A DNA stretch of 64,000 nucleotides from Podarcis vaucheri (Eukaryota): NCBI GenBank assembly GCA_965113315.1, contig OZ220364.1; one strand, 5' to 3'. Made by a program: the position numbers and the translations under genes. Positions 2,844 through 55,915 of the stretch are shown here, piece by piece. The notes under the pieces were generated by a model. That model did no database searches. It was not told the origin of the DNA and saw only the letters and a list, made by a program, of their open reading frames with translations. The first letter of the stretch is position 1, and every line of letters begins with the position of its first letter.

Positions 2844-2891
2844 CCCCTCTGCTGGCAAAATCAGCCACCCTGCACAACAGTTAAGCCAATG

Positions 2892-3060
2892 CAGTGGCGT
2901 AGCGTGGGTTGTCAGCACCCGGGGCAAGGCAAGTAATTTGCGCCCCCTAACCTGTGGATTTGCGCCCCCTAACCCGTGGATTTGCGCACCCTAACCCTAA
3001 CCCCCAGATGTTGCGCCCGGTGCGGCCGGCCCCCCCTGCACCCCCCACGCTACGCCACTG
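2892..3060. mobile_element. GC-rich hAT-type MITE (short form)
   Basis: TIR CAGTGGCGTAGCGTGGG / CCCACGCTACGCCACTG; perfect 8-bp TSD AGCCAATG (2884-2891, 3061-3068). Confidence 0.92.
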
Positions 3061-12439: not shown

Positions 12440-13398
12440 CTGTACAGCAGAGGAGAGAAGGGAAAAATAATTAATCCTGTACTATAAATAGCTCCATAGA
12501 TCCCGATCCTGAGGACAAAGATTTTTCTTCCAAAGATACTACTAACCAAACACACAGTCAGCTCTTCATATGTTATGTCCAATGGTAGTAGACATAACAG
12601 ACTGTTGTGTCAGTTCCAAAGAATGAGATCCAAAATTAGTCAAGGCAATTACTTTTTCGAGAACGAATACAACAATTGGCAATGTGGTATAGATTAATTC
12701 TAAAGCAGCTGACCCAGAAATATCACTTTACCAATGCCATGTGCCTTTGTGCTTCCTAAATCCCTTTGTCACTTGGGACAATCCTGGTCCTTTTTGTGCT
12801 TCTATACTGAGACCACAATCACACCATACATTTGAAGCACTATCAGTCATGATTTCGACCCCCAAAGGATTATGGGAGCTGTAATTAGTTAAAGGTGCTG
12901 AGAGTTGTTGGGAGAGTCCTGTTCCTCTCCCAGAGCTACTATTTCCAGAGTGGTTTAACAATCAATCCCCAGGGAACTCTGCAAATTGTAATTCTAGGAA
13001 GGAAATAGGGGGTTGCTATCAAATTTCAGCACCTTTAACAAACTACAGCTCCCAGAATTCTTTAGTCGCAGGTCATGACTGTTTAAAGTGGGGACCATAG
13101 TGGTAGCAGGAAAAAAAACCTGTATGAGATTATCTTATGGTGACTGAATGTCTCTGGTCATCTGTAGCTGTACTATAGAGTGCTCTGTAACTGACTTAGC
13201 CGTAATGTTTGGTGGAGTGCTTCTCAAAAGAGAATGTGCAATATCTAAAGTAGGATGTAAAGGAGATCCTTCATAGAATCATAGAACTGTAGAGTTGGAA
13301 GGGACCCCCGGCAATGCAGGAATCTTTTGAACCCACAACCTTGAGTCTCATGTTCTACTGACTGATCTAACTGGATGGTGCCTCATGGCCTTTTGTAC

Positions 13399-14381
13399 CT
13401 GTGCTGCACTGCGGTCACTCCTTTCTCCACTAATGCCTTCCTGTTAGCCATTTGAAGGAGCCAGATTTCTTTGCGGGAGAAAAGCCGGATGCTGAACGCC
13501 TTTTCCAGAAGCTTGTCAGTGGTCATGTGCTCACGAATGTCCCGCATGAAACCCCACAAGCTCCCTTTGATATCCACCACCTCCAAGCCTTGCGAAGCCA
13601 CGGACAGCTGGAACTGCTTGAGCAGGGCCAGCGCGATCCGGTAGAGGACTTTCTGCCCCTCCAGAAGGTACACGTCAAAAATGCGGATGACATAATCGAA
13701 CGGGAGGCCATCGAAAAGCCAGACCAGCCAGTCGGAATACACCTCAAAGATGTTGTCCGATGAGCTCGCTATCAGGCGGTGGGCAGCTGGGCAGTGTTTG
13801 TTGGCCAGGTCCCCAAAGGTCATGCACGAAGCCTCGTGGGTGAGGAAGGAGTGGTCAATGTAGGAGGTGTGGGGAGCGTTGCAGTAGAGGAGCCGGCAAG
13901 TGTCCTCAAAGCACTGGGCCTCGCCTTGGCTGTAATGGAGCATCAGGGCAGTCACAGCGGGAAGCAGCGGGCAGTAGGTGATGTCGGGGTACAAGCTGGA
14001 AATGCAGATGAGTATCCTTTTCACTGCAATTACCCCTTCTTCAGAGAGGCAGTATTCGGGCATGATGCTTCCTTCCAGGAATTCAGGTAATGGGTCGAAG
14101 CTCTCGTTCGGGGCTTCAAACAGCTTGCTGGCAACATCTCTGTAGACTTCAGCGTCAGGGGTCATGAGCCTGCACGGTATGTGCTGGATTACATGCTGAT
14201 AAGCCTGCGCCCTCAGAGCGTGACTTCCTGCCCAGCGCCCTTCCCTCCCCAGCTTTTTGAGCTCCTTCATAGACTTGCCAAACAGGGGCTCCTGTCTGTC
14301 CTGCTGCTCGTTCAGCTTGGGCATCTTGTTCTGGTCCACAAATTCGCTGCAGCATAAGCAGGAGGCTGCGTCCATGTCCAT
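13399..14381 (-). CDS. TBC1D24-like protein, coding exon 1 (TBC domain)
   Basis: Translation MDMDAASC...ELKKLGREGRWAGSHALR...PDITYCPLLPAVTALMLHYS...EGQKVLYRIALALLK...KAFSIRLFSRKEI resembles the TBC1D24 TBC domain. Acceptor ttttgcttcacAG gives an exon boundary at 14431; ATG at 14381; donor CACAG|GTAC at 13399/13398; 983 nt coding. Confidence 0.93.
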
Positions 14382-14748
14382 CGCAACCACCGAAGGGATT
14401 TGCAAGGAGGCCTTAGATAGATCGGTGGTCTCTGTGAAGCAAAAGCACCATGGTTCAGTACGATTCACACCTCACCATCGGGCAGATTGCTTAAACTGTT
14501 CCTGACAACTGTGGGTGAAAAGCACTGGGATTTTATCCAGTCTCTTGGGAACTGCAACCACAGACAATTCCCACTTAAAATTTAAACACAAGCACCAGTC
14601 ATAGTTATCACTTGTCACCTCACAGGCTTTTATTTAGTCTTCTAGGTATTTGGGGATGCTTCCATCTCTCATGTAAATAAAAACTATCTGCTCATCATTA
14701 CTTAAAAAGGTAGAACAACAAAACATTTAAATGTGAGTAAGCATAGAG

Positions 14749-16348: not shown

Positions 16349-16656
16349 TAAGAACATAAGAGCCCTGCCAGTTCAGGCCAGTGGCCCTTCTAGTCCAGCA
16401 TCCTGTTTTTACAGTGGCCACCCAGATGCCTGTGGGAAGCTAAACACAAGACCTAAATGCAGCAGCACTCTCCCCTCCTATGGTTTCAAGTAACTAGTAT
16501 TCAGAAGCATACAATGAAAGCATACCCTAGTCATTGTGGCTAGTAGCTTTATGTTCCATCAATTTATCTAATCCTCTTTTTATTTCCAAGTTGATGACCA
16601 TCTACATCCCAACACTGCTTTCCATGAGCATTTCTTCCATAATTTAACTATGTGCT
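16349..16656 (-). mobile_element. CR1 LINE 3' fragment (host of nested insertions)
   Basis: TAAGAACATAAGAGCC...TCAGGCCAGTGGCCC..CTAGTCCAGCAT, recognised as a reptile CR1 3' end in antisense; resumes briefly after 17312. Confidence 0.6.
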
Positions 16657-17312
16657 TCTCGATTCAGGTACGTAGCCGTGTTGGTCTCATGCAGTCAAAA
16701 TAAATAAATAAAAATGTAAAATGTTCAGTAGCACCTTAGAGACCAACTAAGTTTGTTCTGGGTACAGTGGTACCTCAGGTTAAGAACTTAATTCGTTCTG
16801 GAGGTCTGTTCTTAACCTGAAACTGTTTTTCTATGTTCTATAGCCAATTTCCGTCTCACCTGTTCAGTATCCACCAGACACATCAGTTAGCTAGCGGATA
16901 GATGTATTTTTTTACACTGATCAAATCTGATGGTATATGAAGAAGTGGACAGGCCCTGCTACTACGAATTGGCAAGGCCTTAAGATGCCACAGCATCTTC
17001 TTGGTCTTTTTTTTTAGCAAAGAGAACAGTTCTTCATTTACAAATCCAAATACAGTGGTACCTCAGGTTAAGTGCTTAATTCGTTCCGGAGGTCCGTACT
17101 TAACCTGAAACTGTTCTTAACCTGAGGTACCACTTTAGCTAATGGGGCCTCCCGCTGTCACCGTGCCACCGCCATGCGATTCCTGTTCTCATCCTGAAGC
17201 AAAGTTATTAACAAGAGGTACTATTTCTGGGTTAGCAGAGTTTGTAACCTGAAGCACCTGTAACCCGAGGTACCACTGTATAAGCTTTTGTGTGCATGCA
17301 CACTTCTTCAGA
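16657..17312. mobile_element. Penelope-like retroelement fragment split by a composite MITE
   Basis: GTAGCCGTGTTGGTC...CAGTAGCACCTTAGAGACCAACTAAGTTTGTTCTGGGTA | TAAGCTTTTGTGTGCATGCACACTTCTTCAGA; 12-bp flanking duplication TAACTATGTGCT (16645-16656, 17313-17324). Family name from recalled lizard repeats. Confidence 0.6.
16765..17278. mobile_element. Composite Tc1/mariner MITE: truncated left copy (16765-16827), captured DNA (16825-17052), full copy (17053-17278)
   Basis: Outer TIRs CAGTGGTACCTC / GAGGTACCACTG with TA on both sides and an internal second left TIR at 17053. The middle segment is the reverse complement of 43267-43495. Confidence 0.9.
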
Positions 17313-19434: not shown

Positions 19435-19795
19435 ACAAGCTGGAGTTAGAAAATTCATACAAACAAGCTGGAGTTAGAAAATTCATACAAACAAGCTGGA
19501 GTTAGAGAATTCATACAAACAAGCTGGAGTTAGAAAATTCATACAAACAAGCTGGAGTTAGAGAATTCATACAAACAAGCTGGAGTTAGAGAATTCATAC
19601 AAACAAGCTGGAGTTAGAGAATTCATACAAACAAGCTGGAGTTAGAGAATTCATACAAACAAGCTGGAGTTAGAGAATTCATACAAACAAGCTGGAGTTA
19701 GAGAATTCATACAAACAAGCTGGAGTTAGAAAATTCATACAAACAAGCTGGAGTTAGAAAATTCATACAGACAAGCTGGAGTTAGAAAATTCATA
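19435..19795. repeat. Minisatellite, 13 x 28 bp (ACAAGCTGGAGTTAGARAATTCATACAA)
   Basis: Head-to-tail units at an exact 28-nt period, differing mainly by one A/G. Confidence 0.97.
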
Positions 19796-30474: not shown

Positions 30475-30960
30475 GTTCGCGCACGCGCGGTTTCCGTTTT
30501 CCCTGCCCCTCCCGCCTCTCCCTCTTTCTCTGTACCCGGCGCCCCTTTCTCTTTCGTTTTCAGTGACGCCCCGCCTTTCGGCCCCTCCGTCGAATGCGCC
30601 CGAGGGTCGCGCTTTCCTCCGTCTCGTTGGTCGCCTGAGCCTTCGCGGACGCCGTTGTCAGCTGACCTGACTAGGAACGGCTGCAGGCACGGAACTCGGA
30701 ATACAGGCTTTTTGGGTGGCTGGGCGCCGCCATGGCTCCGGACCCCTGGTAAATGTGTGTGTGTTTGTGAGGGGGGGGGGGGGCAGACCTCTTGGTTGAA
30801 GCCGTGGAGCGTTTCCCTTCGGGGCTGCTGCCTTTGACCCAAGGGGTGGAGGGGGGGGGGCTTCACTCTGGGCCTGATATCGGCCAGAGAAGGGCAGGCG
30901 CGTCCTGCCCCTTCCACTTAATGCTAACCGGGCGTGGGCAGCCTGAAGGCATAGTGCTGC
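30475..30960 (+). promoter_or_regulatory. CpG-island promoter of STX8
   Basis: Sharp CpG enrichment spanning the first exon, with an NRF1-like GCGCACGCGC (~30480), a CRE half-site TGACG and a GC box CCCCGCC (~30563-30576). Kozak GCCGCCATGG at the ATG. Confidence 0.8.
30732..30748 (+). CDS. STX8: Syntaxin-8 coding exon 1
   Basis: GCCGCC ATG GCT CCG GAC CCC TG|GTAAAT = MAPDP(W), the STX8 N-terminus; 17 nt. Confidence 0.93.
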
Positions 30961-43266: not shown

Positions 43267-43495
43267 TATTTGGATTTGTAAACGAAGAACTGTTCTCTTT
43301 GCTAAAAAAAAAAGACCAAGAAGATGCTGTGGCATCTTAAGGCCTTGCCAATTCGTGGTAGCAGGGCCTGTCCACTTCTTCATATACCATCAGATTTGAA
43401 CAATGTAAAAAAATACAGCTATCTGCTCTCTAACTGATGTGTCTGGTGGATACCGAACAGGTGAGACGGCAGTTGGCTATAGAACATAGAAAAAC
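43267..43495. repeat. Source copy of an inverted dispersed duplication (partner 16825-17052)
   Basis: The reverse complement aligns by eye to 16825-17052 with about 11 substitutions and 1 indel over ~228 bp. Confidence 0.95.
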
Positions 43496-45139: not shown

Positions 45140-47577
45140 GTAAGTCATCCTTCTTGGTTTTTAAAGCCTTAATCCTATCCTAGAACCTCTACATAGGCAT
45201 CATGGTTGATAGCCACTGGTGTTGATTGCATCCTCTTACTCCAGTGACCTAGGTCAGAAAATCTTCCACCTTCACCTTCTTTTGTATAGGATGGAGGTAT
45301 TGATTTCTGATGTCCAGTTTGTTTTGTCCCTGACCATCCAAAACATTCGAGCACTTTGTTAAATGTTTGTTTTGAGTCCATGGGGGCATTTCTCTGCTTA
45401 AGTTCACACACTCGTCATTTGAAAAACAATTCTGTGGGTAGCTAGGAGCTGGCTTGTTAAACCGGAATTCCTTAAGATGCCTCAGATAATTAGGCACCAA
45501 GCCTTAAGTGCCAACGTAGTTTCGGTTCCAGAATTTTCCAGGCTCCTTGGAAGATATCAGTCTTCTGCATCCCTTGGTTGCTGGTGGAAGATCTTGGACG
45601 TACTTCACACTAATCAGGCTAACGTATGTCAGTGTGTAGATAGGGAAACCTCATTCTTATCCAGGCTTGTTTGTGAGGGATGAAAATTTTTACTGGCCCA
45701 CTTTATCTTGCAGACCACTCTTAGCCTGAAACAACCAGAGTGGCACCTTGATCTGGGCTGCCTCATCATTATGAGCTTAGAACTGGTTGTGTGGCTTGTG
45801 TCCCACCAAGAAAATGTGGCTTACTTGGGGCTCGGTAAGCCTTTGCTGTAGGTGCTGAACCTTAAAACAGAGCTGTCAAAGCAACTGTCAGGCAGCAGCA
45901 TAAACCCAGCAGGCTGTATTGGCATAGTGAGCCACAGGTTGTGTAGATCTACCCTGGTCTCTTGTTTAAGTAGATCGAGTCCTTCCCCATGCCCAGGCTT
46001 CCATCGCCAAATAGCCTGGGGATGGGGAACTTCTGACCCACGGACCCAATTAGGTCCTCTGGGCTTTCCTGTTTGCCCCTCAAGGCCATGTCAAGGGACA
46101 TCCGCCTTCCCTACACCCAATGTCAGGTGTGGGGCAGGTAAAGTCCTGGCTCAGCCAAAAGTGGGTCTGCAGGCACTGCCCATCAGCTTTTTAGCAGTGT
46201 CTAAAAAGGGCTTGGAAGATAGTGCTTTGAAAGGGGCTTTTGAAGACTGATTTTCTTCAGGGGCCTGTTTCAAATTGCTGTACGAAGACCCCTGTTAGCA
46301 AAAAAGGCCACCTGGTGTCATTGCCAGCCAGATCCAGTTCCCCACGCAGAATATAGCCCTTTCCTGCTCCTCTCATTGACATCATTTCTGTCTCCTAGGC
46401 TCTATGCTTTTTCTTGAACAGTGATTTTATGTGAAGTAGTTGTGAGGCCTCTTTTGCTGATTAAGTTCTACGTCCTTCTCCCTGATGGTAGGAGGAGTAT
46501 TTTTGGCCTTGGAAACGCTCTCCCATGCACCAGCAGTCATAATGGTGTGGTGCTTGGCTATGCCATCTGTATGGGAAACAGCGTCTGGATGCCAGTAAGC
46601 CAGCTTTTCCACAACAACTTTCTGCTCCTGTAGTGCTTGTCTTAAAACCTCGTGGACACTTTGGGGGCATTTCAAAGCAATTGTATATGCTGTCAAGTAG
46701 GGAGTTTTTTTAAAAAATAAAAATAACGGCTTCTGCAGAAAGATCTATTGAGCCATCAGTTAGCCATTAATCTTTTGCCCTCTTTGCTTAAACAGCCATT
46801 GGCACACAACTCTCCCGCTCCGGCACCTGTAAAAGAACCCCCTCCCCCTTTGCAAAACGCTACCCACAGTAGTTGATTGTGCTGTCTTTGGAGGACCTCC
46901 CCAAAAGCAACTCTCCAAGAGGGCTCCAGTACAAAAGAGAGCTGTGTACGACTGGAGTGTAATTCAGTGCCATTGGGACCAAGGGTGTGGTAATGCCATG
47001 TGCTCTGGATTACAATAGGGGGCATTTTGTAAGACTAGAGGGAGACTTCTATTGCGGCTGTGCTGGCTACAGCTCCCCTTGCCAAGAGTTGGATTATCTC
47101 CCCCCATAAACGCCACATTAACACGCAGCTTGAGAAACCCTTTGGATTCCTTGGTGCTTGCATCACCTATTTGTTTCTCAGTCGTGTTAAACCTTCCCTG
47201 GAAAATCAAAAAGGCTTAATCAGGAAACTATATGAGTGTGCCAAAATGAAATGAAAAACATCCAGTGCTCTTACGATGGAGGAGCAGCTGCAAATCCAGT
47301 TTCTGAAGGGTTTGGGACTCTTGGCTAAACTTTCTTTTCTAAGACACTACCCAGCACTGTCACTTTTACCCTAGTTTCTTAAGATCTGTCTGCTTTGGAA
47401 TTCATTGTCGTGCCATCGGTGAGGTCTTTGGGTCATTAAGTTTTTAACACTTCAGTTGCAGACTTTTCATAATGTTGCTTAGCTGTCGTGGGTCATAAAT
47501 TTGGGGTTTAGCATCAGAACGCTGGAATTTAATTTGATTCATTTTTTTGTTGTTGTTTTTGTTTCTCCCCTGTGCAG

Positions 47578-47670
47578 AGCAAGATGCTGGTCTTGATGCT
47601 CTCTCTTCTGTCTTAGCCCGTCAAAAACAGATGGGGCAGGAAATTGGGAATGAGTTAGAGGAACAGAATG
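47578..47670 (+). CDS. STX8: Syntaxin-8 exon 6 (first half of the Qc-SNARE motif)
   Basis: (E)QDAGLDALSSVLARQKQMGQEIGNELEEQN. Acceptor ctgtgcAG, donor GTAAGG, 93 nt. The downstream exons (rest of SNARE motif, TM anchor) were not found in the window. Confidence 0.96.
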
Positions 47671-48368
47671 GTAAGGACCGTCCTGCTTTCAGAGTTTGAT
47701 GGGTTCAAGAGAGCACACAGTCATTATTTTCGGTGTTGTACCTTCTCATAGTTCTGTTCTACTGAAAACCTTCGGCGCGTCATCTCTGCTGCATCATTAT
47801 CAACCACTCCCAATGATAGTTCCCCCCCTCCCCGAACAGTAATAGAAAAGCCACAATTAATCATCTTCATTTCTAATTGTGATGGTATAAAAGTGAATTG
47901 ACAACAGAGTTTGCTTCCCACTCCCAGCATTGGGTTCAGGCCGAGCAATGGGAAAGAGAGAGTGCCGAATTTTTATGTCATCAAAGTACAGATTTCAGAG
48001 AAGTTTTAAAAAGTGAAGAATTGTTTCAAAACTGTTACTCAATCTGCCCATGTCCGCCTGGATCATTATCTCCTGTATGGTGTGGTATGGCCCTGGATGC
48101 CACTGTGTCATAAAATATTTTCTATGCCTCCCCTTCTCTCCCATCAGTTGCAAAATTAACCAGAGTACATTGGTGTGGATGCCCCTTGGACATAGAATTG
48201 GGCCTCAGGGTACTTTTATTTTGGTCCCTGTGCCTTTGTTGGGGGGTCTGCCTCTTAGATCTAGAAAATGAGCTGTAAAAGGAGGACAGATTATTTACAG
48301 CAGTGTCCCAGGAACAGTAGTCCCTTCGCTCAAGAGGCTACAGTTTCTGTTTGTAGGTAGGTGTAAGG

Positions 48369-54960: not shown

Positions 54961-55915
54961 CAGTGGTACCTTGGTTCTCAAACTCTTTGGTACTCAAAAA
55001 ACTTGGAACCAGAACCTGGCAGTAAGTGATCTGGTTTGCGAAATTTTTTCGGAAGCCGAACGTGCTCCATTTTGAGTGTTGCGCTTCTGATTTGAGGGCC
55101 ACACTTCCAATTTGAGTGTTACACTGAGGCAGCGGCGTAGCGTGAGTTGTCAGCACCCGGGGCAACGCAAGTAATTTGCGCCCCTAACCCGGGGCAAGGC
55201 AAGTAATTTGCGCCCCCCCCAACCCCTAACCTGTGAGTTGCCGCTGGCGCTGCCGCCCAAACGACGCCGCTTGCCCGGAGGAGGGGGGGGCAGAGAGGTG
55301 AGGAAAATGCAACGGCCCAGCAGCTGCAGCAGCACCGGCGGAGGCGGGGCTGTGAGGAGGGGCTGCCTGGCGCGTCCTCCGCGGCGAGCGCTGAGAGCCG
55401 CTGCCTGCCGGGCGCCTTCAGCCTGGACGCGCGCACAGCTCGTCGGTTCCGCGAGACATGCGGCTCCGCTACAGCCTGCGCCCGAGGCTCTTTGGCGACT
55501 CCGGAGGCAGCGAGCGCGCCCCCCCCAGATGTTGCGCCCGGTGCGGCCGGCCCCCCTGGTACCCCCCACACTACGCCACTGCACTGAGGACTGTCTGTTT
55601 TTGCTATTTATTTTGCATTTTTGTTTTGTTTTTGTGACTGCATGGAACCCAGTTCAGCTACTGATTGATTGATTGATTGATTGATTGTGTAATTGCAGTA
55701 CATTGTTTATTGCTTTCATTTCATGGATCAGTGGTCTCGTTAGATAGTAAAATTCATGTTAAATTGCTGTTTTGGGGGGGTTGTTTTTAAAAGTCTGGAA
55801 CGGATTAATCCATTTTGCATTACTTTGTATGTTAAAGCGCACCTTGTTTTTGGAACGCTTTGGTTTTGGAACAGACTTCCGGAACGGGTTAAGTTTGACA
55901 ACCAAGGTGCTTCTG
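54961..55915. mobile_element. Tigger/mariner-type non-autonomous element with a nested hAT MITE
   Basis: TIR CAGTGGTACCTTGGTTCTCAAAC / GTTTGACAACCAAGGTGCTTCTG; TA TSD; internal (GATT)n at ~55663-55686. Confidence 0.85.
55130..55581. mobile_element. GC-rich hAT-type MITE (long form of the 2892-3060 family)
   Basis: TIR CAGCGGCGTAG / CTACGCCACTG; perfect 8-bp TSD CACTGAGG (55122-55129, 55582-55589). Confidence 0.92.

Follow-up and report, generated by a model that had tools for sequence, protein, structure and literature searches.

An O-subtype MITE in the genome of Podarcis vaucheri contains, within its own sequence, an inverted 228-bp copy of an STX8 intron segment followed by the 5' end of a second, Y-subtype MITE. 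The unit (16763-17280 of the window, that is, of the whole 64,000-nucleotide stretch of contig OZ220364.1, assembly GCA_965113315.1, that was analysed) is real and is shared across species. It probably arose when the O-type MITE was repaired by copying a Y-type copy that once stood at the TA of the intronic source and has since been lost. The route would be duplication-dependent strand annealing (DDSA; ectopic SDSA started in a repeat), for which transposase is not needed. The donor at 43267, deduced from the unit rather than seen, likely existed. At this locus the break site, the template, the direction of copying and the rejoining of a single germline repair event can be read with unusual completeness.

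Structure of the unit and its source

Self-BLAST of the window aligned 16825-17052 with 43495-43267 in inverted orientation (94.8% identity over 229 columns, E 2e-98), bearing out the inverted 228-bp copy reported in the first-pass annotation. The captured copy (16825-17052, minus strand) differs from its source (43267-43495, plus strand), which lies about 26.5 kb from the unit, by 11 substitutions and one indel. When the 1.61-Gb assembly was searched, the 223-bp interior of the captured segment gave two matches – unit and source – while the other flank of the source gave one: the genome-wide copy-number check thus shows that the captured segment is no high-copy repeat.

From left to right the unit comprises a TA (16763-16764), positions 1-63 of the host MITE (16765-16827, plus strand), the captured segment, an internal TA (17051-17052), a 226-bp MITE and a further TA (17279-17280). 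The outer arms are 95% complementary. At the left junction the trinucleotide GTT (16825-16827) is common to the end of the MITE fragment and to the source; because a microhomology of 3 bp is expected by chance in 5.5% of simulations, it is weak evidence alone. At the right junction, alignment and the contigs of related species identify the internal TA with that of the source (43267-43268), which would also have been the target-site TA of the donor MITE. Both junctions, and the layout as a whole, are as first described.

The outer TAs represent the target-site duplication of the host MITE, as judged from the sequence and from paralogues of the interrupted repeat, in which the site is empty and holds one TA; the interrupted repeat is high-copy, and one TA was duplicated. 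Joints of these paralogues skip 516-517 bases, and loose ends run on into the opposite flank. On the evidence of depth, joints and loose ends, the left part of the repeat lies at 16650-16762 and the remainder continues from 17281 to about 17315, all boundaries being approximate. The earlier observation that the flanks rejoin as one repeat, which we take to be Penelope-like, therefore holds. The accompanying claim, that the whole unit entered as a single insertion, is set aside: the host MITE was likely there first and was then filled in place.

Exon matches and self-BLAST place the source in an intron of STX8, between exons near 37.4 and 45.0 kb. The gene was identified through the match of an exon at 47574-47675 to syntaxin 8 (PDB 1gl2_D, E 3e-13); the ATG was read by eye at 30732, as were exon-like frames near 33.6, 37.4 and 45.0 kb. 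STX8 was not recovered by a genome-wide Pfam search for SNARE domains, in which none of 12 matches fell on its contig. The segment had been described as captured STX8 intron, and this is correct of the source; the unit itself lies outside STX8, 14 kb upstream of its ATG and 2.3 kb upstream of a minus-strand exon. This large exon (13386-14471), which faces away from STX8, encodes a RabGAP-TBC domain (PF00566, E 4.5e-23) and is presumably TBC1D24-like. As far as shown, no gene or function is affected, and the value of the locus is mechanistic. No MITE is found within 100 bp of the source, and beyond 43478 the source resembles what we take to be a degenerate LINE/SINE 3' tail. Elsewhere in the window, a 56-bp unit is repeated in a tandem array at 19435-19795 (about 6 copies at 96-97%), and 2891-3060 shares short direct matches (about 60 bp at 93%) with 55129-55581, 52 kb away.

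A chimera of two MITE subtypes

The MITE family is abundant: 37 pieces were counted in 864 kb (about 43 per Mb), which extrapolates to some 70,000 per genome. Of 30 DDE_1 loci examined, one (L179), a 2,953-bp TA-flanked element carrying DDE_1 (PF03184) and HTH_Tnp_Tc5 (PF03221) domains, has nearly the same TIRs as the MITE, and the 75 bases at its 5' end are 81% alike. Because of this likeness to an element with both domains, the MITE is assigned to the pogo/Tigger type, and the label "mariner-type" given to it initially is not retained in the narrow sense. The assignment agrees with the TA target-site duplication, the short TIRs shared with a DDE_1 element and the high copy number; the MITE differs from pogo/Tigger elements in being non-coding. 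From its sequence the partner family looks old: relatives of L179 are 80-87% alike, and L179 has H at the first acidic position of the motif. A separate, young DDE_1 family has TIRs similar, not identical, to those of the MITE; 23 of the 30 loci belong to it, being 97-100% identical to their nearest neighbor, with open frames and, in most, all three acidic motifs. Its copies on many contigs (L180-L203) reach 100% identity in the DDE_1 region, and many of them have open frames 575-631 codons long; the family is possibly still active.

Two subtypes of the MITE are found in the unit. The left fragment (16765-16827) is of the O subtype (AA at positions 21-22, T46), with 0/55 non-CpG differences from the O majority and 3/55 from the TG/A46 majority of the Y subtype. 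The 5' end of the second MITE (17053-17125, plus strand) is of the Y subtype (T21, G22, A46): here the differences are 0/65 from the TG/A46 majority and 3/65 from O, and three other copies in the genome are identical to it over positions 1-73. From position 74 onward the sequence is again O-type. This part comprises positions 74-226 (17126-17278, plus strand, including the right TIR); over positions 74-200 it shows 5/107 non-CpG differences from O, as against 17/113 from TG/A46 Y, and of the 12 stored copies most similar over positions 64-200, 11 are O-type. The switch thus falls between 17099 and 17125 (MITE positions 47-73), an interval that includes the break at 63/64. The unit is thus one whole O element – the left fragment plus positions 74-226, both O-type – with an insert made up of filler, TA and Y-type 5' end. 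What had been taken for a complete MITE at 17053-17278 does have its full 226 bp, but it is a chimera of two subtypes and not one element; by the position of the switch, only the first 46-73 bases were copied, and not a complete MITE.

How unusual is such a combination? Among 107 other copies, many of which were picked by likeness to one or the other part of the unit, G74 accompanies A46 in 0 of 26 A46 copies, TG plus A46 in 0 of 19, and T21 in 2 of 57. In a set of 90 copies not picked by likeness, which overlaps partly with the 107 (the two come in part from the same region), the corresponding counts are 0/16 for A46 with G74 (P=0.004) and 2/48 for T21 with G74 (P=1.5e-8). TG at positions 21-22 is rare, being found in none of these 90. 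The log-odds stand at +19 for positions 1-46 and at -46 for positions 74-125; this contrast is partly circular, the groups being defined by positions 21, 22, 46, 74 and 76, and the markers at 101-124, which were unused for grouping, agree with it. Three points count against a lost donor: the donor part is marked by three positions only (21, 22 and 46), T21 completes a palindrome, so that it may recur, and TG is as rare as stated. A plain tandem duplication of the first 63 bp of one MITE is ruled out, the two 63-bp ends differing in subtype markers.

Related species and loci that retain a donor

Part of the region is contained in 20 of the 24 sequencing runs listed, and seven of these, under seven species labels, were compared. 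The junction of captured segment, TA and MITE is present, as a loose MITE end before 43267, in all four runs aligned on the source (four species labels), and the left junction in one of them (X17). These results exclude an assembly artefact, one of the refuting outcomes named in the first-pass annotation. In the same four runs a contig crosses the source TA without a MITE, and the far-side junction expected of a donor allele was seen in none of them. In two further runs, X13 and X4, the contigs on the source extend 275 and 165 letters beyond the TA with no alignment to the MITE. The source is thus empty in six of seven runs (X15 being uninformative), as it is in the assembly, where the sequence at 43267-43268 bears no excision footprint. 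That 43267 now lacks a MITE is therefore confirmed, and the proposed comparison with related genomes reveals no MITE there, although contigs drop rare alleles, so that a donor allele that still survives might escape notice.

At the orthologous insertion site, contigs break in the repeat flanking 16764 in 4 of 4 runs. Among the matches listed for X13, X4 and X15 there is no capture junction, an absence that carries no weight. Run X1 has a contig crossing filler, TA and MITE as well as a long source contig with captured-like alleles. It was considered as a carrier of the donor allele and ruled out, since one of its contigs crosses the empty TA and it lacks the far-side junction. Since the two haplotypes are resolved in X17, what look like captured alleles in the long X1 and X2 contigs probably reflect paralogous paths that were merged. 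Divergence between filler and source is 11/228 (95% interval 2.4-8.5%), as against 1.5-1.6% for the flanks of X1 and X4 and 3.5% for those of X13, among the pieces listed: the capture is thus older than the closer species splits.

Loci of the same build, at which the donor is still present, exist elsewhere in the genome. A search for a MITE 5' end followed within 500 bases by TA plus TIR, a pattern that sees early breaks only and is silent on hotspots, gave 1,134 matches. The first 100, all on C1, were reviewed (30 by alignment, 70 by eye on 80 letters), and seven candidates were examined further: two have extant donors, one is a tandem duplication of its own flank, for two no source was found and two are not cases. 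The first extant-donor locus (L245, C1:104956171-104956316) consists of MITE positions 1-40, a GAGG microhomology, a 108-bp filler, TA and MITE. Its donor is inverted and 4.4 kb away, near C1:104960729-104961065, with 341 bp at 93%, shared 5' variants and differing right flanks. The second (L268, C1:35813404-35813878) has MITE positions 1-85, a filler with 203 identical bp, TA and MITE; its donor, again inverted, lies 70 kb away (L269, C1:35742729-35742926) and is equal to it over MITE positions 1-77. The second MITE of L268 carries the private A78 of the host fragment and 11 further differences from the donor. By its sequence this capture would be very young. Its junction lies in a (TTA)n tract, and the host fragment is also split by a repeat with a 15-bp duplication.

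At the tandem duplication (L237, C1:29356813-29356908), the repeated stretch takes in MITE positions 1-68 together with 30 bp from the left flank of that element. The two loci without a source, at C1:79092659-79092771 (L242) and C1:104539138-104539383 (L260), both have a truncated 5' end, filler (55 bp or 163 bp), TA and MITE. No source was found within about 15 kb of the former, and the filler of the latter is mostly another repeat; both are candidates for lost or distant donors. All three donors, one of them deduced, are inverted, a number too small to call an orientation bias. Split MITEs in L017 and at -122.9 kb of the region were rejected as captures, since they look like retroposon insertions. 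In L017 (904-1444) a SINE-like insert of about 310 bp splits the MITE at 62/64, the same position as the break in the unit, an anecdotal coincidence.

Probable repair from a lost donor, and known routes of capture

The proposed sequence of events would begin with insertion of the O MITE at the TA at 16763. A break would then have occurred near position 63, at the stem base of a hairpin of 22 bp that is possible in O copies. The right end would have invaded a homologous Y copy in inverted orientation, 26.5 kb off on the same chromatid, on its sister or on the homologue. Synthesis would have run outward across the 5' end and TA of the donor into 228 bp of its flank; the new strand, once released, would have been joined to the left end through GTT without loss of host sequence. 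The donor insertion would either never have become fixed or have been excised without a footprint. Because a linked donor gives it automatically, this scheme accounts for a junction exactly on the MITE end plus TA. Template-switching repair that used an allele carrying a MITE at 43267, as first suggested, is supported by the foreign-subtype end and by the two extant-donor loci; the donor allele itself was not found, and the aberrant transposition offered beside it is not needed by the repair account. In O copies positions 2-23 can pair with 61-82, and the mean energy of the first 90 nt is -18.0 (38 O copies) against -11.0 (25 Y copies), as compared without a shuffle control. The hairpin is a possible cause of the break, and one that is dispensable: the two extant-donor loci broke at about 40 and 85. 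The mobilisability suggested at first is at most hypothetical, the unit being single-copy and holding an internal, competing left end.

Four other explanations were weighed against repair from a lost donor. Were two templates used, the right end copying a Y 5' end elsewhere and then jumping to the source through TA microhomology alone, both the chimera and the empty, footprint-free source would be explained together, and TA/A46 copies do occur in the region, for example 34 kb upstream of the unit. The jump must, however, fall exactly at the element's TA; the unit is the sole TG-type copy in the surrounding 864 kb; and both extant-donor loci needed one template only, a MITE with its own flank. 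We consider this unlikely. Duplication of positions 1-63 of one MITE, by fork stalling and template switching or by one-ended aberrant transposition into the source TA, with later gene conversion to Y, is a reading that we hold to be quite unlikely. Three non-CpG differences in 55 sites would fit the age of the event, the own-flank tandem duplication at C1:29.36 Mb has such a shape, and one-ended transposition would account for the TA; but all three differences are linked subtype markers rather than random change, and with T21/G74 mosaics at 2/48 in the background an extra rare event is needed.

The order of events might also be reversed, a longer piece of the source filling the O MITE, a Y MITE entering its TA and a deletion fusing Y (5') to O (3'). 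No lost donor is then required, and with about 43 pieces per Mb the TA-targeting family is abundant. Against this stand the three events required, a crossover that must hit positions 64-73 of some 160 homologous bases, compatible and low divergences of Y part (0/65 non-CpG) and filler (11/228), and the lack of any intermediate in the runs compared; we regard such a history as very unlikely. Hardly worth entertaining is an assembly artefact, or a 228-bp segment that is itself a repeat. X15, the run closest to the assembly, has source alleles only among the matches listed, and contigs drop variants; yet there are two copies only, they are 5% diverged, and the junctions occur in runs of four other species labels.

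The repair route is a known one, as is the kind of product, a single-copy Pack-TIR; less usual is a vanished donor betrayed by subtype chimerism. Among the open-access papers listed by our searches, judged by titles and the opening lines of abstracts, none described a vanished donor recognized by the chimerism of MITE subtypes. A subtype switch together with a junction exactly on TA provides a simple test that distinguishes homology-primed capture from microhomology gap filling, even without the donor. Two extant-donor loci among the first 100 of 1,134 matches suggest, moreover, that the route is countable genome-wide, and that a count would show how far away donors lie and how they are oriented in the germline of a vertebrate.

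Among known systems the nearest are the Pack-TIRs; a survey of 100 animal genomes reported 370 of them, most in single copy and in cis, and explained them by gap filling (Tan et al. 2021, PMC8277862). The unit has most of their features, and its description as a pack-type MITE stands: an internal 228 bp is enclosed by MITE positions 1-63 and a piece that ends in the right TIR, both termini of the TIR element being represented, and the parental copy is unique at an identity of at least 90%. Like single-copy Pack-TIRs (PMC8277862) it is a TIR element with 100-5000 bp of same-chromosome host DNA, an internal break and junction microhomology, and needs no transposition. It departs from simple gap filling in that positions 1-63 occur twice, the second time in the other subtype, and from mobile, multicopy Pack-TIRs or FoSTeST in that the filler is found at unit and source only. 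In the gap-filling model of that paper the parent is free of TEs and is joined through microhomology, and a small deletion is left, with a median of 4.6% of the TE (PMC8277862); the unit, unlike such Pack-TIRs, has one long-homology junction with a second copy, no deletion, and 63 bp present twice from two subtypes. The animal screen is described there as dropping parents with TEs within 100 bp (PMC8277862), and cases of a lost donor would likely be filed under it as plain gap filling. More tentatively – and we think it somewhat doubtful – homology-primed repair among copies of an abundant MITE, with inverted same-chromosome donors preferred, could be a routine source of Pack-TIRs here (dozens), the subtype switch being a fossil of insertions absent from living alleles; some animal Pack-TIRs with a "TE-free parent" would then be products of lost-donor DDSA.

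P-element gap repair and end-bypass capture (Gloor 1991; Tsubota and Huong 1991, as cited in PMC8277862) resemble the present case in that a DNA transposon gains neighboring host DNA. In end bypass, to judge from that citing text, transposase moves the element plus flank by way of a false end, whereas the unit keeps its original target-site duplications and has the flank inside the element. DDSA, whose mechanism is described in PMC3276153 and PMC3420103, is known through these sources from Drosophila duplications of kilobases (Fiston-Lavier et al. 2007). The unit shares with it a microhomology, GTT, at the re-joining end. The repeat that should adjoin the source is absent today, is implied by the foreign-subtype 5' end, and is present at the two sister loci. 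Unlike the Drosophila cases, as those two sources present them, the unit is a matter of 228 bp in a vertebrate MITE, and the donor repeat has gone from the source and can be read from subtype chimerism only.
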